NCBI GenBank assembly: GCA_000004985.1
Contig: GG738853.1
Origin: Naegleria gruberi
Lineage: Eukaryota
DNA length: 64,000 bases
Direction: 5' to 3' (one strand)
The notes under the pieces are model-generated. The model was given only the letters and a program-made list of their open reading frames with translations. It made no database searches and was not told the origin of the DNA. A program made the translations under genes and the position numbers. This document shows, piece after piece, positions 13,488-59,059 of the stretch. Numbering within the stretch: position 1 is the first letter of the stretch; each line of letters opens with the position of its first letter.

Positions 13488-13559
13488 GGGACCATGGTCT
13501 AGTGGTATGATTCTCGCTTTGGGTGCGAGAGGCCGTGGGTTCGATTCCCACTGGTCCCC
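13488..13559 (+). tRNA. tRNA-Pro (UGG)
   Basis: 72 nt. The acceptor GGGACCA pairs with TGGTCCC. The D-arm GGTCTAGTGGTATGATT is nearly identical to human tRNA-Pro. The anticodon stem CTCGC/GCGAG carries loop TTTGGGT, and the T-arm is GTGGG-TTCGATT-CCCAC. Confidence 0.92.
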
Positions 13560-14109: not shown

Positions 14110-14211
14110 ATTGATAATATCAAAATCTTAATACTGAATAAGAAACCGAATCTTGTACATTAAACATTAATAAGAATAGCGAACTGTTAATTTACGTAAG
14201 CAAAAAAGGAG

Positions 14212-14277
14212 TAGCAAATCTAGGTTTCGATCCTAGGACCTATGGGTTATGAGCCCATCGCGCTGCGCCAATTTGCT
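14212..14277 (-). pseudogene. initiator-type tRNA-Met (CAU)-like copy with truncated D-arm
   Basis: The reverse complement is AGCAAATTGGCGCAGCGCGATGGGCTCATAACCCATAGGTCCTAGGATCGAAACCTAGATTTGCTA. The acceptor, anticodon arm (CAT) and T-arm are intact, and the T-loop is the initiator-type ATCGAAA. Only 10 nt lie between position 9 and the anticodon stem, where about 17 are expected. The copy is 66 nt in total. Confidence 0.6.
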
Positions 14278-20129: not shown

Positions 20130-23100
20130 ATGGATCAATATCAAATTGAATGGAGAACAGCACCCGTTCCTGTTATTGCTCTTGTAAAAAACAAGAGACT
20201 TCATGATGGATTGATTACATGTATTCAAAATAATATTTCTAGAAAGATTAAAATACTTAGCCTCGAGAATGAAAATGAAATAATCAAACCAAAATCAATT
20301 ACTTCCAAATCAAATATTAATTTGTTTGAAAACTTGAGTATGAACTCAATTTTAATATCAAGTAATGTTACTGCTAATTCCGTTATGAATAGTAGTAGTA
20401 GTAATAATAACCAAATATCGTCACCAGTAGTATTAACAAGTCCACCACCTTTACAACCATCATTATCAAGTTCTTCTATCACTTCATCTTCATCATCTAC
20501 ATCTAAAGATTTACCACCACTTCCTTCACATTTGTTAAATAATAATCCTACTAATAGATTTGAAGGAACTAAACCTGCAGGTATATTTAAACGTGGCTGG
20601 TTTAAAAAACATCAAGAATTGATACCAAGTGTTTGTGTAATTATTGTTCATTGGAAATCAGATGAACATTCTACTTGGCGTGCACAAGAAAGTGAAATTG
20701 CTAAAAAAATCTTAGCTGTAAAGGAAACAAGAACAGGAAAAAACACAAAATTTGTTGCAATAATTGTAACAAAGAAATCAACTCCTGTGAGTGAAGTTCA
20801 AGTTGATCCAAACACTTACATGTCAACTGATGATTTTATTTATAATGTCAGAAAAGCAGCTAATTTGGATAGTAAGAATATTATTTTAATGAAAGAATCT
20901 GAAATTAGTGATGATCAATCTTTTAAAACAAAGCTTACAAAACCTATAAAGGAATCTATTGTAAATTACTATAAGGAACAAATGAATATGGTTAAAAAGT
21001 TTAAGAGTGATATTAACAAAACTACTCAACCATATTATTTTGTAAGACATAGAATGAAAGTGGCATTTTACTATGACATTTTGATGAATAGTGGTTTAAC
21101 TACTCAATCGTCTATTCAAAAGATGATTAAATATCTTACACAGGCATATACAGCACTGCAAAATGTGTCAACTACAGATTTTCTTGTAGAGGAAATCAAA
21201 ACTTTGGGAGATATGCTTAATTTTAAACTTTGTTTTATCAAATTATCAGATAAGAAAATTGATATGGCTGTAAAACAATTTTTGAAACACATTTCATGGT
21301 ACAAATTAATTCATGAGGAGGATTATTCATCTAGCTCTATCGATCAATTTAAATTCCATGCAAGAGTTTATTTGCAATACAGAATGATGGGAGAAATTCT
21401 TGAAAGAATTCCACCAAATTTACTTTCACCTGATCAAAGATATCAAAATCCAGGATTTTATTATCAAGCAGCAGCTACACATGCCAAATATAGAAAAACA
21501 TATGCTTCCAATGTATGTGACCTTCACAAGGAATTGGTAGATTCCATATTTGCAGGCAATGAAGAATTGTTAACAAAAATCAAAATTGAAGATTATCACT
21601 ACTTGACTGGATATTATGGTAAAGTGATTGAAATGCCAGAACTTTCAGAAAAATTGAAGGGAAATACTAACGGTATTAATATTAGAAATATCAGAGATAT
21701 TGCTCGTGAGCTAATTCTTGCTAAACATTCAGAAACTATAATTCAAATGTTAACCAATGCTTACAATCACTTCAATGTTAAAAAAGATTCTCAACTTAAA
21801 AGAATGATGTACTATATTGCAAGCAGTATTGCTAGTGAACATTACGAGTCTGGAAACTATGAGAAGAGTAAAGTTTTCTTTGACAAGATTGCCAAACACT
21901 ACAGAAAAGAACAATGGTATGAACTGTTGACAGTAGTGTTACAGAGATCACTGGAATGTTCAAAACAATTGAAACTTTCAAAACAATTTGTTTTACACGC
22001 TCTTGAATTAATTTCAACTTGTAAGTTTAAATGATATAATACTTTTTAACACTAAAATTTCACAGTAATGACAAATCCACTTCAAGAAAAACATCAACAT
22101 TTGAATGATTTATTATTATTTATTAACACACCTGATCAAGTTATTTTACCTCCATTGTCCTCTCCTGTTGTTATAGATATGGACTCTAAAAATGTTTTAT
22201 TCCAACTTAAAACACAATTCAGTGTTCCTTTTGCATCTGTCTACCAACCAATTCAATTTTCAGTTCAAATCACTTCTTATATTCCTTCTGATTTGAGAAT
22301 TTCATCCTTGACAATTTTGTTCAGTGACAAGGAGTATAATATTCATATTCAAGATGGGCAACCAATTCCAATTCCAACATTACCTGATGCTAAAGTGAAA
22401 GAGAGTAATGGTGTTCAACAAGTTAATGAATCAGCTAGTCAATCTGGTGAACCTTTGGATTTGGTTTTGAAGGCAAACTGTCAACCATGTACTTTTAATT
22501 TCCCACTCATAATTAAGCAAAGACAAGATCTTCAATGTTTAGGAGTTTCACTTTCTCTTAAAGGACCAGTTCCAAACCAAGAAATTAGATTCCAGTGGAA
22601 ATTCTTAGATAATGAATATTTCCTAACACTTTTGAAGAGTTACGATTATAGACTTTTCTACTCTGAGGGATTGTTTGTTGAGAGACCTGTTGTGATTATT
22701 ACAGAACCAGAACCTAATCTTTCTCTTTCGTTTGCTCACTTACCTCCAGCTCTTGTAAATGAATATTATAGTATCAGTAAGTTTTCAAGAATTTGAATTA
22801 TTTTTATTAATCCTTGTAAAGAAATAACATTACATTCCAACGATGATCACGTAACTGAAGGAAGGTTGGTCATTGATAACATTCCATCTGTAGAGATTAC
22901 TCACATCTATCAAGATGAATTGGTTCCACTAACAAGCGAGGGTATCAAAGTGCCAGAAATTGTTGCTAATGGAAGTTACAGCGTTATCATTTTCTTGAAA
23001 TGTGAAAAGCCAGGAATCAACAAACTACAGTGTAGAGTCTCTTACGGAACTAAACTTTATCCACAATTAGAAAGAAGTACATCGTTTGATGTTTCTTGTC

Positions 23101-24065
23101 AATATCCATTTGATTCACATTTCCACTTTATGGCTACCAGACAAGCTGAGAGCAAAATTGTAAGAGATGAACAAAGGGATATTGTACTCAATGAGAATGA
23201 AATGATGTTCAGACTCTTACCATCTCAAAGAGTATCATTCTACCAAAAAATTATTAGTAATGTTAGTCAAAATATTTCAGTCTCAGATCCATTTGCCAAG
23301 GACAAGACACAATCAGGATTTTCTTATTTGGAAGGTTTTTCAGTTCTGCAAGCCATTGCTCTTCAAACTTCTCTCAAATGTACTACTCCTTATTCTGTAA
23401 ATTTGGAAGAAGTATCAATTGATTCCTCTGATAAGTTTATGTGTATGACTTCAACTGATTATACCTCTACTCTCTATGCAAACTCTTACAAGACCTATCT
23501 TGAAGATAAGGATGAACATAGTTCTTGTTTTGTAATTGTTCCAAGAGAGATTGGAAAGAATGTTCCTGTTGGAAATATTCGTATTGCACTTAAAAGAGCT
23601 GAACCAATTAATATTGATGAGATTGATCCAATACTTGTAGAGAAATTTAATTTAGCGAGAATTGAATATTCAACTCAACTTCCTCCTCTCAATATTATTG
23701 ATCCAGGTGTTACAGTAAGCTTTTGCTCACCTTTCGAAGCTTTTGTTGGTACTTCTATCAAATGTAGTTTAATTGTTGAGAACAATACACCACAAGTACA
23801 ACAAGTTCAATTATTCGTATCAGAAAATCCAACCTATCAACCATTCTTCTACTCTGGTACTACCAATTTGAGATTTTCTATTTTACCTTATCAAAGTAGA
23901 GAATTGGTTTATAATTTTGTTCCTATCATGACAGGATTAATTGAATTCCCAAAGTTTTCATTAGGAAATTTGAAAAAACAAGTTCACATCCTCAATGATG
24001 ATGAGAAATGGACAATCTACATTCATGAAAAGAATACATTGCCTGAAACTTTTAACATGCAATAA
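20130..24065 (+). CDS. TRAPPC11: TRAPP complex subunit 11 (Gryzun/foie-gras family) (exons 20130..22020, 22066..22776, 22822..24065)
   Basis: Three ORFs join in frame through GTAAGT donors at 22021 and 22777. The acceptors are at 22064-22065 and 22820-22821, and both introns are 45 nt. PAGIFKRGWFKKHQELIPSV, GKNTKFVAIIV, YYFVRHRMKVAFYYD and QNPGFYYQAAATHAKYRK parallel human TRAPPC11. Confidence 0.85.
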
Positions 24066-24121: not shown

Positions 24122-25423
24122 ATGAACACTCATTTCAATGATCTTTCCATTGTTTTTGATCAATCATCATCGGAATGTTTTCATTCAATTGACAATAATC
24201 AATTATTATCATCACCATCCACCACCAACTATGAAATGTTAAAAATCAAGATGAAACAAACAAAATATGAAACATTGGAAAATCAAGTAACAAATCTCTT
24301 TGAACAAAAAGAAATTGTCAAACAATTTTGGAAATTGGAAAGAGAATTTAAATATCTATCTCCCAAGGTACCCAATTATCGATCAATTTTATTACAGGTC
24401 ATTAATAGAAGTTCTGGAATGGTATTACAATATGCAACTAATGAATTGAAGAATGATATTCAGGTGGTGACAAGTGCCTTTATGAAAACTGCTCGTTCTA
24501 TTCAATTTGTTTCGAATAAGTATATTGTAATGAAACTTATAAAAGGGACAAGCTATGCTCCACACCGTTTACAATATTTAAGTGAAGAAATGGCAAGAGA
24601 TGATGAAATTATTCTTGCACTTATTTCACTTTCAAAAATTGGAACTGAAAAATTTATTGAACAACTAAAATTGGATTTTCACACAAATTTCAGAATTAAT
24701 CCAAATGTAATAATGAAATGTTTTTTACAATGCCATTGGATGATTAAATTTGCAGATGAATCACTAAGGGACAATGAAGAATTCATGCTAAAGGCAATGG
24801 AAACCTATCCTAAAACATTATACTACATTTCAGATAGATTGAAACTAAACAAGTCATTTATTCTCAAAGCTGTTAACACAAATGGAAGAGTTTATAATTT
24901 TCTTTCTCCTGAATTTCAAAATGATACTGAAATTATTTCAACAGCTGTGAAACGAAATGGATTTATTTTTGCCTCAATACCAAGAAAATTTCACTCCAAT
25001 AAGGAAATTTTATTGAGTGCCTTCATTGATGGATGTGACAGATATAATGGAAACAATTTTTACACAGTCAATGGTCAATATCGATTCATTTTTAAACAAG
25101 TTCCAAAGGCACTGAAAAGCGATAGAGAACTTGCATTGTCACTTGTTCAAAGATTTGGATATTCTATTTATTATTTGAGCAGAGATTTGATTAATGACAG
25201 AGAAATTGTGTTAAAAGCCATTGAAAATTGTTATTTCTCTATTATGGTAGTTTACAAACATATCTTTGTGTATAGAGATGATGAAATTATGAAATTGGCA
25301 GCAAGACAATATCAACCATCGTCATCATTATCACTACAACTTGATAGGAAATTAAGACGAGAAATTGAGGATGAAAAATATTCTAAACGATCTTCATTTT
25401 CATGGAACAAGTATCAGTACTAA
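24122..25423 (+). CDS. DUF4116-repeat protein
   Basis: 433-aa ORF. It carries repeated ~35-aa units of the DUF4116 type (LQYATNELKNDIQVVTSA, LKAVNTNGRVYNFLSPEFQNDTEIISTAVKRNG, LSRDLINDREIVLKAIEN). Confidence 0.7.
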   Translation: MNTHFNDLSIVFDQSSSECFHSIDNNQLLSSPSTTNYEMLKIKMKQTKYETLENQVTNLFEQKEIVKQFWKLEREFKYLSPKVPNYRSILLQVINRSSGMVLQYATNELKNDIQVVTSAFMKTARSIQFVSNKYIVMKLIKGTSYAPHRLQYLSEEMARDDEIILALISLSKIGTEKFIEQLKLDFHTNFRINPNVIMKCFLQCHWMIKFADESLRDNEEFMLKAMETYPKTLYYISDRLKLNKSFILKAVNTNGRVYNFLSPEFQNDTEIISTAVKRNGFIFASIPRKFHSNKEILLSAFIDGCDRYNGNNFYTVNGQYRFIFKQVPKALKSDRELALSLVQRFGYSIYYLSRDLINDREIVLKAIENCYFSIMVVYKHIFVYRDDEIMKLAARQYQPSSSLSLQLDRKLRREIEDEKYSKRSSFSWNKYQY

Positions 25424-26352: not shown

Positions 26353-26423
26353 GCATTAGTAGTGTAACGGTATCATACCAGCCTTCCAAGCTGGTGACCC
26401 GGGTTCGACTCCCGGCTAATGCA
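26353..26423 (+). tRNA. tRNA-Gly (UCC)
   Basis: 71 nt, GCATTAGTAGTGTAACGGTATCATACCAGCCTTCCAAGCTGGTGACCCGGGTTCGACTCCCGGCTAATGCA. The cloverleaf is canonical with anticodon loop CTTCCAA, and a TTTT run lies ~7 nt downstream. Confidence 0.92.
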
Positions 26424-27026: not shown

Positions 27027-27097
27027 TGCATTAGCCGGGAGTCGAACCCGGGTCACCAGCTTGGAAGGCTGGTATGATACCGTTACACTACTAATGC
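27027..27097 (-). tRNA. tRNA-Gly (UCC), inverted duplicate
   Basis: This is the exact reverse complement of the 26353..26423 tRNA sequence. Confidence 0.92.
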
Positions 27098-30250: not shown

Positions 30251-31222
30251 ATGAAAGCAAATCTAATCTTTTCAATTGCAATTCTACTCTTGCTTGCAAT
30301 CCTCTCAGTTCAAGCAAGTGATAGCTATCAAACTAAACCTCCAGTTGTCGTAGTTGACAAGTATCACAAGCCAAAGGTTTGTAAGAGAAAATGCTTAAAG
30401 CATAAGTGGATTAAGAAGTGTTTGAAACATAAACTCGTTGGTCAAAAGAAGGTCTGTGATCAATATGCAATTGTCGGTGCTGGCAAATGTCTCAAACATA
30501 AGAAATATTCCAAATGTGACAAGTACAGTAAGCCAACAAAGAAGTGTGTCTTGCATGCATACAAGATTGTTGGATGTGCCAAGAAGAAGTACTGGAAAGT
30601 TTGCGATTCTTATGGAACTAAGAAGATTTGCATCAAGAAGGGTTTCAAGAAGTTCTGTGCCAAGTACAAGATTATCAACAAGTGTTTCAAGAAGGGTTTC
30701 AAGAAGGTCTGTAAGAAATTCAAGAAGGTTCCAATCAAGAAGTGTGAAAAGAAGAAGATCTGTGACAAGTACACTGTTGATTCTTACAATAAGAAGGTTG
30801 CCAAATGTAGATATGTTAAAAAGTGCAAGATTGTCTCCTGGGCAAAGAAATGTGCCAAGTATAAGAAGGTTAAATACTGTAAGGAAAGAAAATCTTTCAA
30901 GAAGTGTTGTCTCATTAAGAAGAAATTCTTCTGTGCCAAGCATAAGACCATCAAGTTCTGTAAACACAAGAAGACTCTCTCCAAATGTGTCAAATATAAC
31001 AAGAAGAAGTATTGTGCCAAGTCAATTGTCATTCCACCAAGATGTATCAAGAAGAAGTATTATAAGAAGTGTGTGAAACGTTCAAAGGGAAAGAAGATTT
31101 GTAAGAAATTCAAATTAGTTGGTGGAAAGAAGAAGTGTTGCAAGTCAATTAAGAAGAAGATTTGTATCAAGAGAAAGACATGTAAGAAGCCAACAAAACC
31201 AATCGTCAAACCATCCTTGTAA
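30251..31222 (+). CDS. secreted, extremely basic Lys/Cys-rich repeat protein (323 aa)
   Basis: The ATG at 30251 gives MKANLIFSIAILLLLAILSVQA, which is signal-peptide-like. About 300 aa follow, built from K-rich spacers between Cys residues (KCLKHK, KKGFKKFCAKYK, KKGFKKVCKKFKK...). My hand count is ~108 Lys and 32 Cys, with very few D/E. All other frames are open only because of the AAG/CTT bias. Confidence 0.7.
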   Translation: MKANLIFSIAILLLLAILSVQASDSYQTKPPVVVVDKYHKPKVCKRKCLKHKWIKKCLKHKLVGQKKVCDQYAIVGAGKCLKHKKYSKCDKYSKPTKKCVLHAYKIVGCAKKKYWKVCDSYGTKKICIKKGFKKFCAKYKIINKCFKKGFKKVCKKFKKVPIKKCEKKKICDKYTVDSYNKKVAKCRYVKKCKIVSWAKKCAKYKKVKYCKERKSFKKCCLIKKKFFCAKHKTIKFCKHKKTLSKCVKYNKKKYCAKSIVIPPRCIKKKYYKKCVKRSKGKKICKKFKLVGGKKKCCKSIKKKICIKRKTCKKPTKPIVKPSL

Positions 31223-31312: not shown

Positions 31313-31384
31313 CTCCCATGCCGGGAATTGAACCCGGACCTCCTGGGTGAAAGCCAGGTATCCTAGCCATTGGACTACACGGGA
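31313..31384 (-). tRNA. tRNA-Glu (UUC)
   Basis: The reverse complement is TCCCGTGTAGTCCAATGGCTAGGATACCTGGCTTTCACCCAGGAGGTCCGGGTTCAATTCCCGGCATGGGAG. The cloverleaf is canonical at 72 nt, and a TTTT run lies ~8 nt downstream. Confidence 0.92.
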
Positions 31385-35704: not shown

Positions 35705-37176
35705 ATGTCTGTCGTCGTTCCAAAGGATGTTCCTACATTGGGTATTTTAGTTGGTGGTGGTCCAGCCCCAGGTATGTATTCTGTGTTGTATTCATAAATA
35801 ATAATAGTTGTGATGATTTTAATGTCATGATGATGCTGATGTAAATTTAACCTTACATACAAAATTTTGATCATTTCTATTATGATGTATTTCCGTGATT
35901 CCTATGATGATTAATATTTCCTATTAACAATTGAATAATCATTTACATATCTTTTAATTTAGGTATTAACGGAGTTATCAGTTCTGTTACTATTGAAGCA
36001 ATTAATAATGGATATCGTGTTTTGGGATTCTTGGAAGGTTTTAATTATTTGATTGCTCAAGATGATTCTAAAATTGTTGAATTGACCATTGATGCAGTTT
36101 CTCGTATTCACTTTGAAGGTGGAAGTATTTTGAAGACTTCACGTGCTAATCCAACTAAGAAGGCTGAAGATTTGACCAAGTGTGTCAAACAATTACAAAA
36201 ATTCAATGTTTCTCTTTTAGTTACAATTGGTGGTGATGATACTGCATTCAGTAGTATGAGTATTGCTAAGGCTGCTAATAATGAAATTCACGTTTGTCAC
36301 GTTCCAAAGACTATTGATAACGATTTACCATTGCCATATGGTATTCCAACATTTGGTTATGAAACTGCTCGTGAATTTGGTGCTTCTGTTGTTCGTAGTT
36401 TAATGTCAGATGCTCAAACTGCTTCACGTTATTTCATTGTTGTTGCTATGGGTAGACAAGCTGGTCATTTGGCTTTGGGTATTGGTAAATCTGCTGGTGC
36501 TCATTTAACTTTAATTCCAGAAGAATTCACCAATGAAGCTGGTGAAATTCAAGTTACTTTTAAGAGAATTTGTGATCTTATTGAATCAAGTATTATTAAG
36601 AGATTAGCTTTGGGTAAAGATCATGGTGTCATTATCTTGGCTGAAGGTTTATTGGAATACATGTCAACTGAAGAATTGAAACAAGCATTCGGAAATCAAT
36701 TGAAATATGATGCTCACGATCACATTATGTTGGCTGAATTGGATTTCGGACGTCTTGTTCGTGATGAAATGAGAGATCGTGTCTCTAAACGTGGATTGAA
36801 ATTTGCTTTCACTGAAAAGAATTTGGGTTATGAATTGAGATGTGTTTCTCCAAATGCTTTTGATCGTGAATATACTCGTGATTTGGGTAATGGCGCTGCT
36901 CGTTATTTATTATCTGGTGGTAATGGTGCTTTGATTAGTGTTCAAGGTGATAAGATGGTTCCAATGAATTTCGAAGATTTGAAGAATCCAAAGACTGGTA
37001 AGACTCGTACTCGTCAAGTTGATATTAAGAGTGAAGGTTTCCAAGTTGCTAAGAGATATATGATTCGTTTGACTTCTAAGGATTTGAATGATCAAGAATT
37101 CCTTGCTCGTTTGGCTCAAGCTGCCAAGATGTCTGTAACTGAATTTGTTGAAACTTATGGATATTTGGTTCAATAA
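35705..37176 (+). CDS. pfp: phosphofructokinase, predicted pyrophosphate-dependent type (exons 35705..35771, 35963..37176)
   Basis: Exon 1 (MSVVVPKDVPTLGILVGGGPAPG) ends at G|GTATGT. The acceptor AG is at 35961-35962 in phase 1 (191-nt intron), and the sequence continues INGVISSVTIEAINNGYRVLGF. The PFK motifs TIGGDDTAFS and VPKTIDNDL are present. The product is ~426 aa. Confidence 0.88.
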
Positions 37177-43110: not shown

Positions 43111-44299
43111 ATGTCTACTCCGACAATGACAGCAGAGTTTGACGATAGTCATTTAACTACGTTTAAATTTGGACAGTCTGATGCTCATATGCATGACTCA
43201 CTCGATCCTTCCCAATGGAAAATAACAGATTTTGAATTGTTAGAAATTATTGGTACTGGTACTTTTGGTAGTGTTAGATTAGTTAAACATAAACATACAC
43301 AACAATACTATGCTATGAAAATTATTAAAAAGTATGATGTAATTAGAATGAAACAAGTAGAACATATCATTAGTGAGAAGAATATTCTCTCTCAAGTTGA
43401 TCATCCTTTCATTGTTAGACTTTATAGAACATTCCAAGATGAAAATTATTTATTCATGATTATGGAATATGTGTGCGGAGGTGAATTGTTTTCACATTTG
43501 AGACGTGTTGGTAAATTCCCTAATGATGTTGCAAAGTTTTATGCTGCTGAAATTATTTTAGCTATGGAATATCTTCATATGAAGAATATTGTTTATCGTG
43601 ATTTGAAACCAGAAAATGTTTTATTAGATAATGATGGTCATGTAAAAATTACTGATTTTGGTTTTGCTAAGAAGGTTCTTGACCGTACGTGGACTTTATG
43701 TGGTACTCCTGAATATTTAGCGTAGGTTTTTATTAATCTCTTAATATTTAAATTACTCTTTAATCTCTTAATCATAATGATAATACTCTTAATCATTCTG
43801 ATAATCTAAATCATCTAATTATTTTATTATGAATAGTCCTGAAATTATTCAATCTAAGGGTCATGGTAAAGCTGTTGACTGGTGGGCATTAGGTATTCTT
43901 ATTTATGAAATGTTAGTTGGTTATCCACCATTCTTTGATGATTCACCTTTCAAAATTTATGAAAAGATTTTACAAGGAAAGGTTGAATTTCCAAGATTTA
44001 TGGATCCAATGGCTCGTGATTTAATTAAACGTCTCTTAACTACAGATAAGATGAAACGTTTGGGTAATTTGAAAGGAGGTGCTGCTGATATTAAGGAACA
44101 CAAATGGTTTAAGGGTGTTGATTGGGATGAATTATATAATAGACAAATTGCATCTCCAATTCCTGTCAAGATTAGTTTTGCAGGTGATTCTAGATACTTT
44201 GAAACTTATCCGGAATCTCAAGATCATTGTATTCACCACACTGGTACTCCACATCAACAATTATCTGCTGATGTTCAAGCTCTATTTGATGGTTTTTAA
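43111..44299 (+). CDS. cAMP-dependent protein kinase catalytic subunit (AGC kinase) (exons 43111..43721, 43837..44299)
   Basis: Kinase motifs [26 protein letters not shown] and GTPEYLA|PE are present. The donor is GC|GTAGGT at 43722 and the acceptor AG is at 43835-43836 (115-nt intron, phase 2 restoring GCT). The AGC tail has the terminal FDGF hydrophobic motif. Confidence 0.9.
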
Positions 44300-45977
44300 T
44301 TTTTATTAAATGTATGTGAGAATACTGTATATACATCAAATAAAGTTATACATATTGTCACTGTACTTTTACTAAACAAGGTTTTAAACACTTGTTTCCA
44401 TTCATTTGTAAATAATGATTGAATAGTTTTCAAATCAATAACAATGTCAATAAAACACCAAAATCTAATCCATTCACAACCCCAATCTAATTCAATTGGA
44501 ATTCTAATGACTTGTTCCCTTGTTAATGATGGTGGTGAGGTTGGTGATGGTGATTCATCATGATTTTTATCATTATTCATTGTTTCATCTCCATTTGTTG
44601 TAGCAGTAGTAGTTGAATCATTTCCATTCACCGTCATTGTATCATCATTATTTTCATTATAATAAGAATTATCAAATTCAATTGACCATCTAGATCTAAA
44701 ACCAATACTAAATAAATATAATTGTTCATAAAATTTTGAAGTCATGTAATAAAATAGAGTATTATAAAATTTTCCATACGATTGAAATAAACCTCCAACA
44801 GAATGTTCAGCAGTTGCAACTTGTAAATCAATGAAATAACGTAAAATTTTAGAAATTTGAACAAGAATATTTCTACACTTGTTAATTAAATGAATAATTC
44901 TATTCAATTTTGATAAATAATTCATATTATTAGAATTTTTATAATTATTTAAAATTCTCAATTCAGGTAAAAGTTCATTATCTAAAATAGGAGGTGGTGG
45001 TAATTCAACTTTAGAAAAAACTTCTTGTTGATCATAATATTCTTTCCATTTTTGTAAAAATACTTGTTGTGAATTTTCTGAAAAAGGAGTCCATAATAAA
45101 CCTCTTTTTGTTAAAGAAATATTAAAATCATTTAATAAATTTGATCTAATTTGTAAACTATATCCTTTTATAGAAGTAGAAATTCCATAAATTAATTTTT
45201 TAAAATTATGAAAATTCATAATTGATAAACTTAAATATAAATATCTTGCTAAATAAGGAATATAAAATTTTCTTCTTAACATTAATTTAGTAATAAAATC
45301 TTTAATTTTCATTTGATATCCAAAATTAGTAGATAATTTATATTTACCAAAAATAAAACCAATATAATTAATTAAAATTAAATATAATTTTGATTTTTCA
45401 TTAAAAGGTTTATGTAAATGTAATTTAAATATACCATATATATATTTCATATCTAAATATTTAAATAATTTTTTAAAATAATTTTTAAAATAATTTATAT
45501 TTTTTTCATTTAATTTAATTTTATATTTAAATGTTTCTCTATTTGTATAATTTTCATTTCCAATATTAGAATTAAATGTATTATAAAAGGAAGTATATTG
45601 ATTATATTCTTCTTCTTGTTCTCTTTGCATTTCTTCAATATCATCATCTTGATAATAAATATTATTTCCATCTTTGGTAATATTATATATATCATAATGA
45701 TATTCACTTCCAATTGAATATCCTATTTTTTTATCTAATTGAATAAAACTTTATATATTTTATAATAATATTTAAAAATTATATTTAATTAATATTAAAA
45801 TTATATTTAATTAATATTATATTTAAATTAAAAAAAAACATACTTTATAGGTATTTGTAAATTATGAGTAGGATAACATCTCATTGAAATATCAAATGTA
45901 GCATATTCTAAATCCCATGGATGTGTATCTTCATAAGAATCCCAATTTAATGATGCATTTAATTTATATATTTCCAT
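44296..45977 (-). CDS. very AT-rich protein of unknown function (exons 45977..45844, 45748..44296)
   Basis: Exon 1 (MEIYKLNASLNWDSYEDTHPWDLEYATFDISMRCYPTHNLQIPI) ends at AA|GTATGT (donor at 45843). The acceptor AG is at 45750-45749. The phase-2 join (AAT) continues FIQLDKKIGYSIG...EEMQREQ into ORF 44296..45630. The intron is 95 nt. I recognise no family. Confidence 0.5.
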
Positions 45978-46411
45978 TTTTTAATATTATTATTAATATT
46001 AATATATTATTATATTATTATTAGTATGTTATCAATTAGTTATATTGTTGAATTATGTTATTATATTGTTTGTTACATGAATTCCGAGAGTATGATCATT
46101 ATTTGTTGTTGTTGTTGTTGTTGTTGTAAATATAACAATAGAAGTGATGTTATTTTTTTCACGTATTAATGAAGGCTTGTTTCTAATTCAACATTATTAT
46201 CATCATAATAAAGTTTCAATGAATAATTTAAAGAAGAAATAAACATTGGAATTCAAATGTCCAAGTCTAGACTTGAGAATAATTGAATGGCCATTAGAAA
46301 GAATTTTCATGACATTATTCCCGCCATAAATTAAATCTACAGTTGTTTTATTCAAATATTAAAAAAAAAGTGTAAATAATTGAGGAGGGAAATTTTAAGA
46401 AAATAATAATA

Positions 46412-46687
46412 ATGGACAATCAAGTGTTGTATTCAGCAGAACAAATTCAAATTCCCAATGATTTAGGAGAAGTTCTTAAACAATATACAAAGGATGCTAT
46501 CAGAGCCTCACCAGCTGATTTGATCCGATGGAGTGCAAAGTAAGTATTATTATTCCATATAATCAATAATTTAGCCTTCCTTACATGAAACAGTTATTTT
46601 GCAACCAAGACTAATAAACCACTTCCATTCCCTAATGTTCCTCTCACTAACACTACCCCTACTAGTACTACTGCTCAAAGTAAATAA
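46412..46687 (+). CDS. small RIIa (PKA-RII dimerisation/docking)-domain protein; 3' exon structure unresolved
   Basis: Exon 1 (46412..46540) reads MDNQVLYSAEQIQIPNDLGEVLKQYTKDAIRASPADLIRWSAK, followed by GTAAGT. This matches the RIIa pattern IPxxLxxLLxxxTxxxxRxxPxDLxxFxxxYF. With the AG at 46592-46593, a canonical phase-0 join gives only LFCNQD then stop (46614). The attractive continuation YFATKTNKPLPFPNV... (to 46687) is offset by 1 nt. Confidence 0.5.
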
Positions 46688-46880
46688 TAGAAATATTAAT
46701 AGCAAAATGACGTTTGTTGCCAACTCACACAATGTAAATATCTCGAAAACATCTTCCTAATAATATATCATTGCCCAACAATGCATATTGTTCAATACAG
46801 CAAATAACTGTAATTGTCTTGCAAAACACGTATTGGTGATTTCATCATTCAATTTGAAAATAAAAATAGCAAACAAAAAA

Positions 46881-48453
46881 ATGAAAATATTTAAACTTTT
46901 AATTGTATTATTATTTTTGATTTCATCAATAGTACTTGTTGCTAATTGTTCAGATGCTACTTCAACTGCTGGTAGTGAAAATATAGAAATTAAAAGTAAA
47001 TTAAATGATCAACAAAATACATATACACAAGATTCATTATTGGGAAATGGTATTTTAACTGGAATTAAAAAGGATGGAACAATTGATAGTATTATTGCTC
47101 AATATAAACAATTAGATAATGAATATATTAAATCTAATAATATTGATAATGGTGATGAAAAGAAGGAAGATATTACAATTGAAAATCCATCAGTAACAAC
47201 TCCTACAACACCTACTACTACACCAACAACAACAACACCACCTATTGATATTACAACACCATCATTACCTAGTACTGTTAATAATCCAATTGATGAAAAA
47301 CCAAAAGATATTGAATTGCCACCATTGGAAGAAAAGAAATCATCAACTGAATCATCAAAACCAACAGTTGATACTCCAACAACAACAACAAAAACAACAA
47401 CAACTACTACTACAACTCCATTACAAGATAAACCTGGAAAGGAAGAAGAATCAGCTGCTGAACAAAAATTGAGAGAAGAAATTAGTAAACTTAAGGCTAA
47501 ACTTGAAGAAATTCAAAAGAAGGAACAAGAAAAGTCAACACCAACAGCACCAATTGAAAAACAAAATAAGCCTATTACAATTGAAAATCCATCACCAGTA
47601 ATAACTCCTACAACAACAACAACTCAACCAAAGGCTGAAAAATCAATTGAAACTACTAAACCATCTACAACTACTACTACTACACCTTCTAAACCATCTA
47701 CAACTACAACTACAACTATTCCATCTAAAATTGATAATAAGAGTAGTACTCCAAGTAAACAGACAACATCATCTACTACTAGTAAAACATCGACAACAAC
47801 AACAACTCCTAATACTACTACTAACAAATCAACAACAACAACTACACCAACAAACAAACAATCATCATCTACTACTAGTAGCAGTTCATCATCAACAAGT
47901 AAATCATCTTCCAAATCAAAGAATAAGTCTACAACAAGTAGTACAACAAGTAAGAATAAGACTAAACCATCAAGTACTTCTCCAACTACCAACAACAAAC
48001 AATCATCATCTGCTAGTACTACTTCTACAACTCCGACAACAAAAACTCCAACAACAACAACAACTCCAAGTAACAAACAATCATACTACCACTGGTTCTA
48101 CTACTACTACTTCCAATACTAATAAACCAAGTAGTACTACTTCTACAACAACAACTCCAAGTAACAAACAACCAATTCAACCTAATAAGAATACAGTTGT
48201 ACGTCCAACACTTAAAGAAGAAGAAGAAAAGAATAATGGAATATCACAAGTATTTATATTTGGATTTGGTATAATTCTATTTTTAGTAATTATTGCAATT
48301 TTCTTTTTATTTATGAGAAAGAGAAAACCAACATTAAAATATGAACCAGTTTCACAATATGAAAATGATTCAATTCAAAATAATGATAATTCCATTGTTG
48401 AATTAGATGATAAACATAAAGTAATTAATGAACCTGTTGATTTGGAAATTTAA
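46881..48453 (+). CDS. mucin-like Thr/Ser/Pro-rich type I membrane protein; apparent +1 frame change near 48084
   Basis: A signal peptide (MKIFKLLIVLLFLISSIVLVANC) is followed by long T/S/P tracts. The Thr-rich reading switches from the frame of ORF 46788..48122 to that of ORF 47647..48453 around CAATCAT|ACTACC. The latter ORF supplies a TM segment (VFIFGFGIILFLVIIAIFFLF) and a cytoplasmic tail. Confidence 0.6.
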
Positions 48454-48846
48454 ATAAATTCAAATATTATATATTACAATTATTATGTTATGTGTGTGTA
48501 TTTATTATTATTATAAAGTATTATTAATGGAGTGTGTGTATATTACAGTTAATCTAATATCAATGATTCAATCAAATAATTACATAAAAAAATTAACAAT
48601 AAAAAAAATGTCCAATCAACATGATTCCGATTCCAATTCATCATCATCATCATCTAAACAACAATTACATCATGATTCAAATAATTCAAATAATTCAAAT
48701 AATTCAAATAATATAATACAAATAATAATAATTCAAATATAAAAAAAACAAGATTTGAACGTGAAATTGAATCATTAACAAAACAAACGATTGAATTAGA
48801 AAATGTAGAAAATAAATTAAAACAATTATTTCCACAAGAATATGCA

Positions 48847-49299
48847 ATGAATAATTCAAACAAATTTGAAAATGATCAAATATTAAGACATCAAGATCCA
48901 ACTGTTAAATATTTTACTTTAATTGGAGGTTCAATTGGTGCAATTTCAAGTGCTTATTTACTTTATCAACCAATTGATAAATTTGGAAGATTATTTTTTA
49001 AACAATTTACTTCAAATTATAGAATTAGATATTATTTTACAATTCCAACTTTTACTTTTTTAACAATTACTATAAGTGGTATTTTATCAGGTTTATATCC
49101 ATATGGTACACATAGAATTATGAAATTTTTAAATAATCAATTTAATATTGATGTTAATGATAATTTTGATGATTTTTTAATTTCTGGTTTACCTTTAACT
49201 AAAAATGATTTACTTTCTCATTTAAATAAATTTAATAATAATAATAATAATAAATTAATTATTAATAATTTAATTATAATAAAATTAAAATTAAATTAA
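48847..49299 (+). CDS. small membrane protein, unknown function; may extend 5' to ATG 48608 across a frame change at 48712..48742
   Basis: ORF 48847..49299 has two or three hydrophobic segments. Its frame stays open upstream to 48712 (YNTNNNNSNIKKTRFEREIESLTKQTIELENVENKLKQLFPQEYAM). There it abuts ORF 48485..48742 (MSNQHDSDSNSSS... from 48608) in another frame. Confidence 0.45.
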   Translation: MNNSNKFENDQILRHQDPTVKYFTLIGGSIGAISSAYLLYQPIDKFGRLFFKQFTSNYRIRYYFTIPTFTFLTITISGILSGLYPYGTHRIMKFLNNQFNIDVNDNFDDFLISGLPLTKNDLLSHLNKFNNNNNNKLIINNLIIIKLKLN

Positions 49300-49319
49300 T
49301 ATTATGTTTAAAATTATTT

Positions 49320-50420
49320 TTATTTATTTAAATTAATATATTTAACATTTAATTCAATACCATTATTACTTTGATTTCTAAAAATGGAATTAAAATTATC
49401 ATTTTTTAAATTATTTGAATAATCAAATGCAATTCCCATACTTTCAGTACTAAAAGTATAACCAAATTCTAATTGATCATAATCAGTAACTTTACATGAT
49501 AAACATCCAATTTTTCTTTCATTTGTAAAATTAATTAAATTACCATAAATAGAAAATAAAGCTTGTTCCATTGGAATTTCAAATATTTTATCAACTAGAT
49601 AATTTGACATTTGATTTAACATGATATCTTCACCAATTCCACTAAAATTACTTGCAATTTGTATAAAATTATCATTATCACTATCTTGTACATATTTAGT
49701 ATCTGAATAACATCCACTTCCATATATAGAAGCTTCACCAATTCTACCTGAATATTTTAATGATATTCCACCACTACTAACACCTGATGATAATATTCCA
49801 TTATAATATATTATACATCCAACTGTATCATATNNNNNNNNNNNNNNNNNNNNNNNNNNNNNNNNNNNNNNNNNNNNNNNNNNATTATTTAAATTATTTA
49901 TATTATTATTACCATTTATATTATTATTATTAAAATTATAAATAGATGAAAAACATAAACATGCATCACATTCAACTAAACCATTTCTATTTAAATTACT
50001 ACCATATCCAGCATTTGTAAATGGTGAATTTTCTAAAATAGAAATAGCATATGAACATGCATTTAAACATTTTTTTATTTTTTCATTTTCATCATTTTTA
50101 TTTATAAATTTACTATTATTTAAATTATTTAAATTATTAAAATATTGATTAATAGTTTGTTGTATAGATTGTTTCATTAAATTTCTATATAAATTATTAT
50201 TATTAATAGAATGATATCCTGCTCCACAATGAACTGCAATAAAATATACATCATCTTCATCTTCATCATCTTTTAAATCATTATTTAAATCATTATTTAA
50301 ATTATTATATTCTATTATTTCATTATTATTATTATTATCTTGTTGTTGTTGAATAGATAAAGATGATGATGATGAATTATTCCGATCAACATGTTGATGA
50401 TGATTAACTTGTTCACTCAT
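49320..50420 (-). CDS. TASP1: taspase-1 / asparaginase-2 family Ntn-hydrolase (interrupted by an assembly gap)
   Basis: FIAVHCGAGYHS, NAGYGSNLNRNGLVECDA and YDTVGCIIYYNGILSSGVSSGGISLKYSGRIGEASIYGSGCY match the family. This includes the DTVG autoprocessing/nucleophile Thr motif. The likely start is MSEQVNHHQH at 50420. N-rich insertions are present. Confidence 0.75.
   Translation of the reverse strand: MSEQVNHHQHVDRNNSSSSSLSIQQQQDNNNNNEIIEYNNLNNDLNNDLKDDEDEDDVYFIAVHCGAGYHSINNNNLYRNLMKQSIQQTINQYFNNLNNLNNSKFINKNDENEKIKKCLNACSYAISILENSPFTNAGYGSNLNRNGLVECDACLCFSSIYNFNNNNINGNNNINNLNNXXXXXXXXXXXXXXXXXYDTVGCIIYYNGILSSGVSSGGISLKYSGRIGEASIYGSGCYSDTKYVQDSDNDNFIQIASNFSGIGEDIMLNQMSNYLVDKIFEIPMEQALFSIYGNLINFTNERKIGCLSCKVTDYDQLEFGYTFSTESMGIAFDYSNNLKNDNFNSIFRNQSNNGIELNVKYINLNK
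49834..49883. other. assembly gap (50 N)
   Basis: A run of exactly 50 n characters lies inside the taspase-like CDS. Confidence 0.99.
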
Positions 50421-50582
50421 TTTTTTAAAGTTTATAATAGAAAAAAACAAATTGTAACACACAACTATTTCAAATTTAATTTTATTACATTTTCAATACA
50501 TACAATACTTTTAATACATATGATTCAGATTACAAAATATATAAATAAATATATAAACACATAATAATAAATATATAAAATA

Positions 50583-51836
50583 TTATTGTAAAATATTATA
50601 CATTAATAATTCTAAAATATTTGTAATTAAAATAACATGTTTACAACTTTGTATATTTTTAGAATCACATACTAATAATGGTAATTGATAATTAATAGCT
50701 AATTCAATAGAATTATTTAATAAATTTAAATGATTATTATTTAAATATTTAATTAAATTATTTTCATTTTCATTATTAAAAGTATTTAATAACATTATTT
50801 CCATTACATCTAATTGTTCTTCATCATCTTTAAATTTACTACCAATTAATGAATTTGATTTTACTTTTAATCCATTTATAGATTCATTTGTATCTAATTT
50901 CCATATTGGTATATTTAATAAATTATTTAAATTTTCATTAAATAAATAAATTACATAAGTTTTACCTGAATATAAATTTGCTGAAAATATTGATTTTCTT
51001 GAATGTGGTGATTTTATACCACCATGATCTTGAAATGATATTTGTATATATTTACTATTATTATTATTATTATTATTACTATTTATAGAATTATTTAAAT
51101 TATTAAATTCAATTAAATTATTATTATTATTAATAAATAATTCAAATGATTTCATTACAATTCTAAAATCAATAGTTTGATCATATTTATTAAAATCTTG
51201 ATCAATTTTATCACAAATATTATTAACAAATTTAGATTTACCTGTTTTAGAATTACCTTTTACATGAATTCTAAAAAATAAATTAGTTAAATCATCTGAT
51301 CTATTATTAAATTGTGTTTTTGTAATTTCTTTAAATTTAAAATAATATTTTGTAATTGTTTGACATAAAATTCTTTCATTTTTTAAATTATTTAATTTTA
51401 AATTTTTAATTTTATCAGAATTAAATGGAAAATATAATATTCCAATTTCATTTTTTAATAAATATTTCCATATTTGATCACATGGTGTTTTTATTTCATT
51501 ATTTAAATTATTATTTAAAATAGATTGACCACAAATATATTCATACCAATCTTTATTTAACATTGATAATAATGTTAATTCATAAGTATTTAAAAATGAT
51601 ATTATTTCAAATGTCATTTCATGTGTTAAATCAAAATTATTATTAAATATAAATGAAATTGTTTTAATTGATGTACTTGTTGTTGTAGTTGTTGTACTTG
51701 TAGTTGTAGTAGTAGTTGTATTATTATCATTATTATCATTGTTATCATTGTTAATAGTAGTTGTATTATTATCAATTAAATGATGATCGGAAGGATCTTC
51801 TTGTTGATCAATAATAATATGATTATTGTTGATCAT
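50583..51836 (-). CDS. F-box-like protein with a divergent P-loop (small-GTPase-like) region
   Basis: The N-terminus has N/T-rich tracts. An F-box-like segment follows (LTHEMTFEIISFLNTYELTLLSMLNKDWYEYI), then a Walker-A-like KGNSKTGKSKF and a possible DxxG (QDHGG). The coding sequence is very AT-rich. Confidence 0.45.
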   Translation of the reverse strand: MINNNHIIIDQQEDPSDHHLIDNNTTTINNDNNDNNDNNTTTTTTTSTTTTTTSTSIKTISFIFNNNFDLTHEMTFEIISFLNTYELTLLSMLNKDWYEYICGQSILNNNLNNEIKTPCDQIWKYLLKNEIGILYFPFNSDKIKNLKLNNLKNERILCQTITKYYFKFKEITKTQFNNRSDDLTNLFFRIHVKGNSKTGKSKFVNNICDKIDQDFNKYDQTIDFRIVMKSFELFINNNNNLIEFNNLNNSINSNNNNNNNSKYIQISFQDHGGIKSPHSRKSIFSANLYSGKTYVIYLFNENLNNLLNIPIWKLDTNESINGLKVKSNSLIGSKFKDDEEQLDVMEIMLLNTFNNENENNLIKYLNNNHLNLLNNSIELAINYQLPLLVCDSKNIQSCKHVILITNILELLMYNILQ

Positions 51837-53308
51837 TTTTTTTTAATTTGATAGAGAAATGTGTGGATTGTATGAGTAGAAGAAATTGTACAAAGAATAA
51901 TAAGAACATGGAACAATTACATGTTCAGTGTTCAACATATCCTCAAAAGCATTTAAAGGAAAACAGCTGTTTTGTGACATCAATTGCTGGTGGTTTCTTG
52001 CATGGATTCGTATATAAGTGGCTCTTATGAGTCCTCAATCCATGATTCTGCTTATTGTTCCAACTGAACCAAAGAATAAGGATGTTAATCATTCAGTTGT
52101 AAATTACTGAAAAGTTTTCTGAATTGGAAGAACATTAAAAGGTCAAACATTTAGAAGATCAAATTCAAATTGAGAAAAAGATAAGAACAAGAAGGATAGA
52201 CAAGAGGAAGCCAGACATAAGAAGGATGTAGAAGACAGAAAGAAGAAGGAAGAGGAAGATCGTTTGAGAAAAGCCCAATTAGAAGAGGATGATTAGAAGA
52301 TGAAAGAAAGAGAAAAGCCTAAATTGAAGAAGAACGTAGGAGAAAGGCAGATTTGGAAGAGGAAAACAAGAAGAGCAACCTGCTCAAGAGGAAGAGGAAA
52401 AGAAAAAGGTTAAATGAGTGAGGTCATGAAAGATCTCCTTTCCAAGTCTGCAACAGAAGTACTCGTTATCAATCATTTGAAGGAATTAACGTCGATTACA
52501 AGGCCTCATTCATCATCATTTTTTGGAAAATACTTTAATAGCTTGGTTTTGTAAACTTTGGAGAGGATCGCAATTTTGGCGTCGATTTGATGTAAATGGA
52601 ACCACAAGGATTGAGCACAAATATTCGTTATGGTAAACAAAATCATTATGTTATCAAACAAACTAGCCGTTCCATTTTAAAATGTAGATTTCGTCTAGAT
52701 GGAACCACCAAAGGTGAGTCAACACGTGCCGATTTCACAACATATTACAATCGTTCCAAGCTGTTGGCCAATCGACAAATTAGCACATAATTTCATAATA
52801 GCGCAATATGATTATTTCACCTACCATTTGGACTACTCATAATTTATCCTTATAATAGAGTTACTTATCTTAACCACTTTGATTTTGTATTCTACTCTTC
52901 TGTTAAAAATATTTGATGATCCTTGGATTCTGTTACTGGTAGTACACTTACACTAAATACTTACGTTGTCTGTCCTGCATGTCTGTTCTGCGACCATTCT
53001 ATGAAGTTTCAAAATGAATTGTGTAAATAATATGCCAATGTCAGAAAAGCAAAGCAACAATTCGATATGTAAAGTTTAAAACAAAATTGAACGCATATGT
53101 ATTCAGAGATATGGTATCTTTAACAATCTTCAGTAGTTATTTTGTTTTACACACTTACACAATTTTGTAGATTCAGTAATGCATTTCTACTCACAAATGA
53201 GAACTGTACTGATTAACGAAGCTGACCCTCCAAACCAATAAAGAAAAATTGAATATTTTGTTTATTTTATTCCGAAAGTTCTAAGTCAATGGTTTTCCAT
53301 TTGGCCAA

Positions 53309-57232: not shown

Positions 57233-57313
57233 ATTTATAATTTTTATTTAATTTTAATACTAATATTTAATAATATTTGACTGTTTTAATAATAATTTTT
57301 TAAATTTGAAATT

Positions 57314-58447: not shown

Positions 58448-58497
58448 TTCAGTGCATTTTTTTAAAAAAATCTTTACAATAAAATTATTTTTTATTA

Positions 58498-59004: not shown

Positions 59005-59059
59005 TTTTTATTATTGAATTATGAAAAGATAAATTGATTGTGTGTGTTTATTATTTATA

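Follow-up and report, generated by a model that had tools for sequence, protein, structure and literature searches.

A secreted lysine- and cysteine-rich Naegleria protein whose mirrored cysteines suggest a long disulfide-laddered hairpin

Disulfide rungs that run along the long axis of an extracellular rod are known from the cysteine-rich domains of TNF receptors, from granulins and from the Tenebrio antifreeze beta-helix. Another group of secreted proteins (mussel foot proteins, trematode eggshell precursors and tyrosine-rich oocyst-wall proteins) is largely disordered and relies on 3,4-dihydroxyphenylalanine (DOPA) or dityrosine chemistry. Beta-hairpin antimicrobial peptides are small, with 11-25 residues and a net charge of +1 to +8, and they are enriched in arginine and amphipathic (PMC13001179). 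Here we describe a gene from a stretch of 64,000 nucleotides of Naegleria gruberi DNA (assembly GCA_000004985.1, contig GG738853.1; this whole stretch is called the window below). The gene lies at 30251..31222 on the plus strand and encodes a protein whose cysteine pattern is mirror-symmetric about the middle of the chain and co-varies between the two arms on either side of it. With modest confidence, we lean towards reading the product as a secreted Naegleria-family protein that forms a giant two-stranded antiparallel hairpin with about 15 disulfide rungs, a stiff polycation that binds polyanions. Within this proposal the oxidation of the cysteines, their exact pairing and the binding target are the parts that we infer.

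The coding sequence is an ATG-initiated, single-exon (intron-less) open reading frame (ORF) of 323 codons followed by a TAA stop. An earlier, sequence-only reading of the locus had described a secreted polycation dense in lysine and cysteine and almost free of acidic residues, and its counts turn out to be exact: there are 108 lysines (33% of the protein and 36% of the mature chain), 32 cysteines and nine acidic residues (7 Asp, 2 Glu), next to 6 arginines, while the motif KCLKHK occurs three times (at residues 47, 56 and 79) and KKGFKK[FV]C twice (at 129 and 147). The mature chain has about 300 residues, a mass of about 35 kDa, a pI of about 10.1 and a net charge of about +104, which bears out the polycation. 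The N-terminus consists of MK, then ANLIFSIAILLLLAILSV, then QA and, past the predicted cut, SD; it has an 18-residue hydrophobic core with Val at -3 and Ala at -1. Hydropathy, the -3/-1 rule and the presence of this segment in all full-length relatives agree with the secretory signal peptide that had been proposed, and cleavage probably falls between A22 and S23. Reading the rest of the protein sequence, we find no hydrophobic C-terminus of the glycosylphosphatidylinositol type, no retention signal, no second hydrophobic segment and no N-glycosylation sequon. The parts of the gene are as follows, with the model confidence given as the predicted local distance difference test (pLDDT) of AlphaFold2.

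30251..31222, plus strand: complete coding sequence of the secreted Lys/Cys-rich protein, based on the ORF, its homologs, the ratio of nonsynonymous to synonymous substitutions (dN/dS) and codon bias
30251..30316, plus strand: signal peptide, residues 1-22 (MKANLIFSIAILLLLAILSVQA), from hydropathy and the -3/-1 rule, with the predicted cut at A22/S23
30317..30379, plus strand: mature N-terminal tail, residues 23-43, with D-x-Y motifs (SDSY, VDKY) and prolines; AlphaFold2 pLDDT <50
30380..30763, plus strand: proposed N-arm, residues 44-171, with 15 cysteines, from cysteine spacing and AlphaFold2 strands
30764..30805, plus strand: proposed hairpin turn or tip, residues 172-185 (DKYTVDSYNKKVAK), the mirror centre of the cysteine pattern and, in both AlphaFold2 models, the point where a long hairpin turns
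30806..31183, plus strand: proposed C-arm, residues 186-311, with 15 mirrored cysteines and 2 extra ones, from backward spacings that mirror those of the N-arm and from AlphaFold2 strands
31184..31219, plus strand: C-terminal Lys/Pro tail, residues 312-323 (KKPTKPIVKPSL), read from the sequence and variable among relatives

The argument starts from the positions of the cysteines. From the first to the last they are separated by 4, 9, 12, 11, 9, 10, 10, 9, 9, 9, 9, 9, 11, 6, 15, 6, 9, 9, 9, 1, 8, 9, 9, 9, 10, 9, 10, 12, 1, 8 and 6 residues. The spacing is exactly 9 in 14 of these 31 intervals and between 8 and 12 in 24 of them, and neither count was reached in any of 20000 shuffles of the mature sequence; Fourier analysis of the cysteines gives a period of 9.3 (z = 11). 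Within the 9-residue unit, lysine dominates positions 2, 4 and 7, with aromatic or aliphatic residues at 1, 3, 5, 6 and 8. The N-arm cysteines stand at 44, 48, 57, 69, 80, 89, 99, 109, 118, 127, 136, 145, 154, 165 and 171, and the mirrored set in the C-arm at 186, 192, 201, 210, 219, 228, 237, 246, 255, 265, 274, 284, 296, 305 and 311; the two extra cysteines, 220 and 297, sit in CC doublets (219/220 and 296/297) outside this scheme. When cysteines are paired from the outermost inwards, the two positions of every pair add up to 353-357, which places the centre at residue ~177-178, within DKYTVDSYNKK.

Counted inwards from either terminus, the intervals run 4, 9, 12, 11, 9, 10, 10, 9, 9, 9, 9, 9, 11, 6 in the N-arm and 6, 9, 12, 10, 9, 10, 9, 9, 9, 9, 9, 9, 9, 6 in the C-arm, so that the irregular intervals also match across the arms (12/12, 11/10, 10/10 and 6/6). 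The mean absolute difference between paired intervals is 0.43 for this mirror pairing, a value that was not matched in 20000 permutations of the intervals. A direct duplication of the two halves, which we considered as the origin of the pattern, fits the spacings worse (1.14) and was rejected. To our knowledge, no genetic mechanism yields a reversed protein sequence.

These observations suggest a specific fold. Once the signal peptide has been removed, the chain of about 300 residues would fold back at the DKYTVDSYNKK turn (residues 172-185), laying the N-arm (44-171) antiparallel to the C-arm (186-311) in a very long two-stranded beta ribbon, in which each of the 15 N-arm cysteines would face a counterpart. 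The simplest ladder would pair 44-311, 48-305, 57-296/297, 69-284, 80-274, 89-265, 99-255 and 109-246 in its outer part and 118-237, 127-228, 136-219/220, 145-210, 154-201, 165-192 and 171-186 in its inner part. We offer this rung-by-rung map as the simplest reading of the pattern; it would account for the correlated loss of single rungs in relatives (N. fowleri compared with the N. lovaniensis protein P0007, and C44 together with C311 in the paralog P0003). Where the sequence-only reading had called the protein disulfide-knotted, the mirror pattern points instead to nested, ladder-like pairing of two antiparallel arms. The anatomy would then comprise a kinked and conserved head, to which both ends of the chain contribute, a stalk in which the number of 9-residue rungs varies, and a variable tip. 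The open end, or head (residues 44-109 with 246-311), has Gly/Pro kinks that face each other and may be compact rather than straight. If fully extended, with 128 residues per arm at ~3.3 Å per residue, we estimate that the ribbon would be about 40 nm long. Its ~108 lysines would project from a stapled, protease-resistant scaffold and make it a stiff multivalent polycation, able to bind polyanionic surfaces or polymers electrostatically, and a quasi-periodic 9-residue ladder would be expected to tolerate the insertion, deletion and slippage of whole rungs in evolution. No protein described so far is known to us in which the cysteines are mirrored globally over such a length, and our searches returned none, on which grounds we regard the architecture, as read from sequence, as probably new. 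The fuller claim strikes us as an even call: that ~15 nested rungs zip a single chain onto itself over ~128 residues per arm, that the chain carries more than 100 positive charges, and that it serves either as an effector that binds polyanions outside the cell, to kill or agglutinate prey, or as a building block of a wall or adhesive.

Database searches place the protein in a small family, Naegleria-wide and uncharacterised, with members in N. gruberi, N. fowleri and N. lovaniensis and a few environmental sequences. With the window protein as the query, a search of 5.8 billion proteins returned three relatives, among them P0003 (E 7.5e-57) and P0001 (E 2.7e-84). A profile of three sequences (the window protein, P0001 and P0003), run against 1.84 billion cluster representatives, gave 17 hits; the E values of the named Naegleria homologs in the profile search range from 2.8e-145 to 5e-19 (N. 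lovaniensis P0007, E 3e-21; N. fowleri P0008, E 5e-19). Two of the 17 hits, P0013 and P0017, look spurious and resemble unrelated repeat proteins. A word search with the family profile returned five proteins, with lysine-rich words swamping the search, and a search with P0014, a relative that is not lysine-rich, matched P0014 itself and nothing else. The six named homologs are:

NAEGRDRAFT_67458 (P0003), N. gruberi: paralog, 301 residues
NAEGRDRAFT_66117 (P0020), N. gruberi: 475 residues
NAEGRDRAFT_76199 (P0002), N. gruberi: chimeric model
C9374_009239 (P0007), N. lovaniensis: 430 residues
FDP41_004030 (P0008), N. fowleri: 379 residues
FDP41_008345 (P0021), N. fowleri: 368 residues

Over its last 137 residues P0002 shares 96% identity with the C-terminal part of the window protein (window 30809-31219), and its first ~300 residues are a SAM/PB1-domain protein that is encoded nowhere in the window; P0002 is probably a chimeric model, and the full-length gene seems to be missing from the N. 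gruberi reference annotation. The remaining hits are environmental fragments (from a soil catalogue, ENA, JGI and Logan), including P0014 and the pair P0016/P0022, which are much less lysine-rich. What the named homologs share is the signal peptide, a D-x-Y start, mirrored arms and cationic charge, with conserved head spacings of 4/10/12/11/9/10 in one arm and 7/9/12/10/9/10 in the other. The window protein shows the same pattern: it has the signal peptide, equal numbers of ladder cysteines per arm and the head C-x3-C-x8/9-C-x11-C-x10-C ... C-x9-C-x11-C-x8-C-x5/6-C. Among the named Naegleria members it is the extreme case, with 36% Lys and +104; it differs from the others in its turn (15 residues rather than 24-41) and stands at the lower end in rungs (15, against 15-18). 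A DSY or DTY lies 1-8 residues past the predicted cut in all Naegleria members, TVDSY in the tip is kept in paralogs, tyrosine makes up 4-12% of the family members, and the C-terminus of N. fowleri P0008 consists of four tandem IDSYKP-like units. Separately, P0016 (L001:3836-5977) and P0022 carry an extension of ~390 residues N-terminal to the ladder domain, made of about seven 4-Cys repeats (C-P-x6-9-C-x-x-G-...-C-x4-C) with no Pfam match, and the P0016 gene adjoins Ras-family GTPase genes on its 6.4-kb contig (L001).

The sequence-only reading had found no obvious family. This stands as far as characterised families go: Pfam gives no match at E<=10 for the window protein and none for six relatives, the best hit of a profile search against the PDB is an unrelated phosphatase (E 0.037), and the best Foldseek hit against the PDB is the stem hairpins of the lysenin pore (E 1.4). 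It does not stand in that a family exists, all of it unnamed predicted proteins. Several of the relatives' sequences are public, but unnamed and undiscussed. The locus tags and accessions of the six named homologs are absent from the searchable full text and from the supplements of one N. fowleri multi-omics paper, these homologs do not figure in the list of an N. fowleri secreted-protein study, and we found nothing relevant in the literature on lysine- or cysteine-rich Naegleria proteins and on cyst-wall transcriptomes.

The gene is real and under purifying selection. At 29% GC about 8% of codons are expected to be stops, so that an open frame of 323 codons is not random. A colinear ortholog lies at L002:290-1264 (Logan contig SRR32051688_570309, run SRR32051688; protein P0005), with 73% identity in protein and 80% in DNA. 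Against it the window gene has dN/dS = 0.14 (Nei-Gojobori; dN 0.14, dS 0.98), and the ortholog keeps all ladder cysteines except C44 (the extra C297 is also lost). In the paralog P0003, which is 45-50% identical, 28 of the 32 cysteines are kept, 60 of 163 columns other than Lys and Cys are identical, and the 108 lysine columns are basic in 78 cases (60 Lys, 18 Arg). The possibility that the frame is a by-product of an AAG-rich repeat, against which the sequence-only reading had itself cautioned, is rejected: dN/dS is low, and the only DNA-level tandem repeat in the gene is one 12-nt x 2.8 array, next to degenerate short similarities, which rules out an origin from a tandem DNA repeat or AAG microsatellite. 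Two overlapping frames, the opposite-strand ORF 30395-30967 and the other-frame ORF 30438-31076, are shadows of the AAG-rich frame. The gene is more strongly biased towards codons ending in G or C than any other window ORF of 250 or more codons (AAG 0.77, TTC 0.91, ATC 0.42, and a G+C content at third positions, GC3, of 0.49, against mostly 0.02-0.3 in the other ORFs). By analogy with AT-rich protist genomes in general, such bias may mark abundant expression.

Now we turn to the arms of the relatives, which change together. The mirror test gives the same outcome in the L002 ortholog, P0007, P0008, P0020, P0021, P0014 and P0016, with 0-1 of 20000 permutations as good; P0003 fails this crude test solely because its two extra cysteines break the register. 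Where the window protein has intervals of 12/12 and 11/10, P0003 has 9/9 and 9/9, having lost LVGQKK of the N-arm and LVGGKK of the C-arm together; two residues of IVGAGK and one of KRSKGKK went in the same joint way, and P0003 also lacks both C44 and C311. Both cysteines of one rung are missing in N. fowleri P0008 and P0021 (intervals 17/18, against 11+6 / 9+9 in P0007). At one rung P0007 and P0020 carry insertions in both arms (15-17 / 21 residues, where N. fowleri has 9/9), and both insertions contain PDPY or DSY..DTY. P0008 lacks two tip rungs in both arms, which P0021 and P0007 have in both, and the intervals 9/9 and 11/9 of P0016 correspond to 11/11 and 13/13 in its relative P0014. In the members tallied by hand, one arm has as many ladder cysteines as the other: 15+15 for both the window protein and P0008, 17+17 for P0021 and 18+18 for P0007. 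Because the spacings are mirrored and co-vary, and because we know no route to a reversed sequence, we read this as a structural constraint, with antiparallel halves whose cysteines need counterparts; it is the only explanation that we can offer.

The cysteines outside the ladder also turn over in pairs. Two such cysteines are found in each of the window protein, the L002 ortholog, P0003 and P0008; in P0003, C220 and C297 are both gone and C77 and C223 are new, and P0008 has the doublets CC 61/62 and 284/285. They lie roughly symmetrically about rungs 6-7.5, near the facing Pro kinks (residues 93-95 and 262-264). If they were bonded to each other, the ribbon would double back on itself near these kinks, and their pairwise turnover hints at such a second-order fold.

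Structure prediction provides a separate view of the arms. With three sequences, AlphaFold2 reaches an overall pLDDT of 43 and places a confident hairpin (strands 148-176 and 181-210, pLDDT 78-88) centred on the same turn. With 13 family sequences the mean pLDDT rises to 68, with values of 83-94 at residues 50-100 and 250-310 and of 81-84 near 150-170 and 190-200. This second model is all-beta, with N-arm strands 48-63, 66-75, 80-92, 96-109, 123-130, 136-143 and 145-171 and C-arm strands 186-213, 249-261, 265-277, 281-290 and 293-308; paired strands have lengths of 16/16, 10/10, 13/13, 14/13 and 27/28, and the breaks fall at mirrored places. From the DSSP strand limits we derive a model register of i+j = 356-358, which puts C171/C186 and C165/C192 directly opposite each other (at the tip only) and lets kinks face each other, G64-Q65 with G291-G292 and S93-K94-P95 with P262-P263-R264. 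Cross-strand residue classes do not discriminate the register, since every register has 17-25 Lys-Lys pairs, and neither period-2 hydrophobicity (z = -0.4) nor period-3.6 amphipathicity gives a signal. An alpha-helical hairpin was considered and rejected, since the model predicts beta structure throughout and cysteines 9 residues apart would not stay together on one face of a helix. The antiparallel two-arm topology is thus supported by two independent lines, the cysteine pattern and the predicted model.

What the protein might do is a separate question. The exchange of lysine for arginine and the range of +58 to +104 across Naegleria members (the window protein is highest, the others have +58 to +87) suggest that charge, not lysine chemistry, is the selected property, and multivalent electrostatic binding of polyanions is, on sequence grounds, the most defensible mechanism. 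As the likeliest target we would tentatively name the anionic envelopes of bacterial prey, bound, agglutinated or permeabilised in phagosomes or outside the cell, because Naegleria is a bacterivore, the codon bias hints that vegetative expression is high, charge seems to be selected and cationic beta-hairpin peptides offer an analogy. Only slightly less likely is a structural role, in a cyst wall, in the surface matrix or in an adhesive.

A number of observations weigh against the ladder and its proposed function. The AlphaFold2 model supports antiparallel arms and not the Cys-Cys contacts themselves: in its register the head cysteine pairs (sums 353-355) are about 3 residues out of opposition, its predicted template modelling score (pTM) is 0.26, and residues 111-124 and 214-246 are of low confidence. 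A flat ladder sits uneasily with a spacing of 9, as its successive rungs would alternate between faces and between hydrogen-bonded and non-hydrogen-bonded sites and bulges would be needed. Two cysteines per protein (220 and 297 in the window protein) lie outside it, the hairpin is not amphipathic, unlike membrane-active beta-hairpin peptides, and distant relatives have a charge of only +30, so that the extreme charge is not family-wide. Nor are rungs strictly homologous across clades: comparing the window protein with the P0007 clade implies a two-rung slip near the tip, where (window residues 145-219 against P0007 residues 154-308) sequence homology and rung counting disagree. Window C201-C210 (AKYKKVKYC) aligns with P0007 C260-C269 (DRYDNVKFC), and window C186 aligns with P0007 C206, an N-arm cysteine. 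The window clade seems to have lost two C-arm rung cysteines and two N-arm tip cysteines and to have re-zipped with a slip of two rungs, which suggests that a periodic ladder tolerates slippage. Further, the L002 ortholog has an in-frame TGA in place of GGA (Gly108) in an otherwise intact frame, which could be a sequencing error, a recent nonsense allele or a young pseudogene, and expression, proteomic and localisation records for the family were not found in the literature searched. At 36% lysine, trypsin would yield very short peptides that standard proteomics would probably miss; this may explain why the protein went unnoticed, and absence from published proteomes therefore says little.

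We weigh four other accounts of these data. It is unlikely, in our view, though worth taking seriously, that there is no ladder between the arms, and that the cysteines form local pairs between neighbours (loops of ~9 residues), join two chains in an antiparallel dimer, or link stacked segments of a ribbon folded at its kinks. The offset of the head cysteines in the model, with the Gly/Pro kinks exactly opposite each other, favours such pairings. Local pairs gain from 89-99 and 274-284, which would face each other across the short breaks 93-95 and 278-280; a folded-back rod gains from the pairwise gain and loss of extra cysteines (220/297 against 77/223), which suggests contacts between distant rungs, and an antiparallel dimer would meet the same constraints as the one-chain ladder. 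Local pairing, however, leaves the equal number of cysteines per arm, the mirrored irregular spacings and the compensating insertions and deletions unexplained, and direct rungs fit the correlated loss of single rungs, as seen in N. fowleri for the counterparts of P0007 C180 and C269 and in P0003 for C44 and C311. That the gene is non-functional, either a by-product of AAG-rich sequence or a decaying pseudogene, seems to us hardly credible. The TGA at the Gly108 equivalent in the L002 ortholog, a reference model (NAEGRDRAFT_76199) that holds only the last 137 residues in a fusion, and the lack of expression records in the literature searched would fit it; against it stand dN/dS of 0.14 at dS ~1, the 28 of 32 cysteines kept in a paralog of 45-50% identity, relatives in three Naegleria species, a gene free of DNA tandem repeats that could have generated it, and the strongest codon bias in the window.

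The other two accounts concern function. A possible, if doubtful, one keeps the same architecture and gives it a structural role: the rod, polycationic and open to cross-linking, would belong to the cyst wall, the surface coat or a substrate adhesive. Its conserved ends, the tyrosines of its D-x-Y motifs and its pair of non-ladder cysteines would serve in its assembly, and it would glue acidic wall polymers together. Much in the family suits it: the open end or head is the best conserved part family-wide, with invariant length and kinks; D-x-Y motifs recur at the mature N-terminus, in the tip, in the paired insertions and in the C-terminal IDSYKP-like units of P0008; tyrosine reaches 4-12%; several members have two non-ladder cysteines that are gained or lost pairwise between paralogs; and purifying selection (0.14) without amphipathicity suits a building block better than a fast-evolving membrane-active peptide. 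Arginine at 18 of the 108 lysine columns speaks against Lys-specific cross-linking, the strong codon bias would be more typical of abundant vegetative proteins, and no carbohydrate-binding domain is detectable in Pfam searches. Improbable, finally, is a polyprotein precursor that is cut at dibasic sites into small cationic, Cys-containing antimicrobial peptides. Naegleriapores are reportedly made from multipeptide precursors, and the window protein, from a bacterivorous organism, has dozens of KK and KR sites and quasi-repeats of ~9 residues. But its units are not repeated peptides, conservation is position-specific along the full length, the mirrored long-range co-variation ties the halves together, there are no spacer or propeptide segments, and fragments would remain linked if the rungs exist. 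The stapled hairpin, with an electrostatic role, thus remains the reading that we favour.

The surroundings of the gene, ordinary housekeeping and tRNA genes, give no functional hint. Its neighbours include a Foie-gras/Gryzun gene (TRAPPC11-like and apparently split, ORFs 20130-22034 and 23130-24065), a DUF4116 repeat protein (24122-25423) and a phosphofructokinase fragment (36256-37176). Five tRNA genes lie in the window, at 31313-31384 (minus strand), 13488-13559 (plus), 14211-14277 (minus), 26353-26423 (plus) and 27027-27097 (minus); a tRNA-Glu(UUC) lies 91 nt downstream of the stop of our gene on the opposite strand, and two copies of tRNA-Gly(UCC) lie on opposite strands ~600 nt apart. 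Only one other long ORF of the window, 6117-7568 on the minus strand, has a comparable codon preference (AAG 0.82, TTC 0.80), which suggests another highly expressed gene. The block 44000-64000 is compositionally distinct, with a GC content of 0.18-0.22 and long ORFs with GC3 of 0.02-0.11 (for instance 49320-50420 and 50583-51836 on the minus strand, 62636-63919 on the plus strand and 44296-45630 on the minus strand), compared with GC3 of 0.2-0.3 in the left half; it could stem from genes of a different class, from an insertion of mobile or viral origin, or from a join in the assembly.

If the mirrored ladder proves real, a single small gene would offer a new means of building an extracellular rod that is long, stiff and resistant to proteases. 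The same molecule would amount to 'poly-lysine on a scaffold', naturally occurring and genetically encoded. To structural biology it would present an extreme of what two-stranded beta ribbons and oxidative folding allow, and it would be of interest for protein design and for antimicrobial or adhesive materials. Besides N. gruberi and N. lovaniensis, the pathogen N. fowleri has members of the family, and host organisms have no relatives of it, so that a role in feeding, adhesion or the cyst wall would offer a lineage-specific handle for diagnosis or intervention.

How, then, does this protein compare with known systems? Three described classes were considered and rejected. In a cystine-knot protein one disulfide passes through the ring that two others close, so that the connectivity is non-nested, within a compact core of ~30 residues; here the implied connectivity is one of nested pairs over 270 residues, and there is no knottin or growth-factor Pfam hit. 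Metallothioneins are cytosolic proteins without a signal peptide, with ~30% Cys in C-x-C, C-C and C-x-x-C clusters; the window protein has a signal peptide, 10-11% Cys, a modal spacing of 9 and only two CC doublets, and again no Pfam hit. A saposin-like pore former of the naegleriapore type (SapB, alpha-helical, 6 Cys) does not fit a protein that has no Pfam SapB match at E<=10 and is predicted to be all-beta. Modular ladders such as the TNF-receptor domains and granulins resemble it in outline, and differ in that their disulfides join cysteines close in sequence within a module, whereas a global, nested, half-to-half pairing is implied here; PDB searches found no sequence or fold match to such proteins. 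Like the adhesive and wall precursors, the window family is secreted and Lys-rich and has Tyr motifs beside Pro and Lys (DSYKP); unlike them, it has a dominant ordered Cys scaffold, exchanges Lys freely for Arg and shows no homology.

The closest comparison is with the 'cystine ladder' of protegrin, tachyplesin, gomesin, arenicin and the theta-defensins. What they would have in common is a cationic, secretory, antiparallel hairpin stapled across its strands; in our protein the antiparallel arms are backed by the mirrored spacing and by AlphaFold2, and the disulfides would follow from the proposed pairing. The differences are of scale, since each arm has about 128 residues and the ladder would have ~15 rungs, where those peptides have 11-25 residues overall and 1-4 disulfides, and of chemistry, with a charge of +104 against +1 to +8 that is based on lysine (108 Lys, 6 Arg) rather than enriched in arginine. 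An amphipathic period-2 pattern and sequence similarity are also lacking. The window protein is thus, as far as its sequence tells, not a member of the class of beta-hairpin antimicrobial peptides, yet they offer the best working analogy for it, that of a protease-resistant cationic scaffold.

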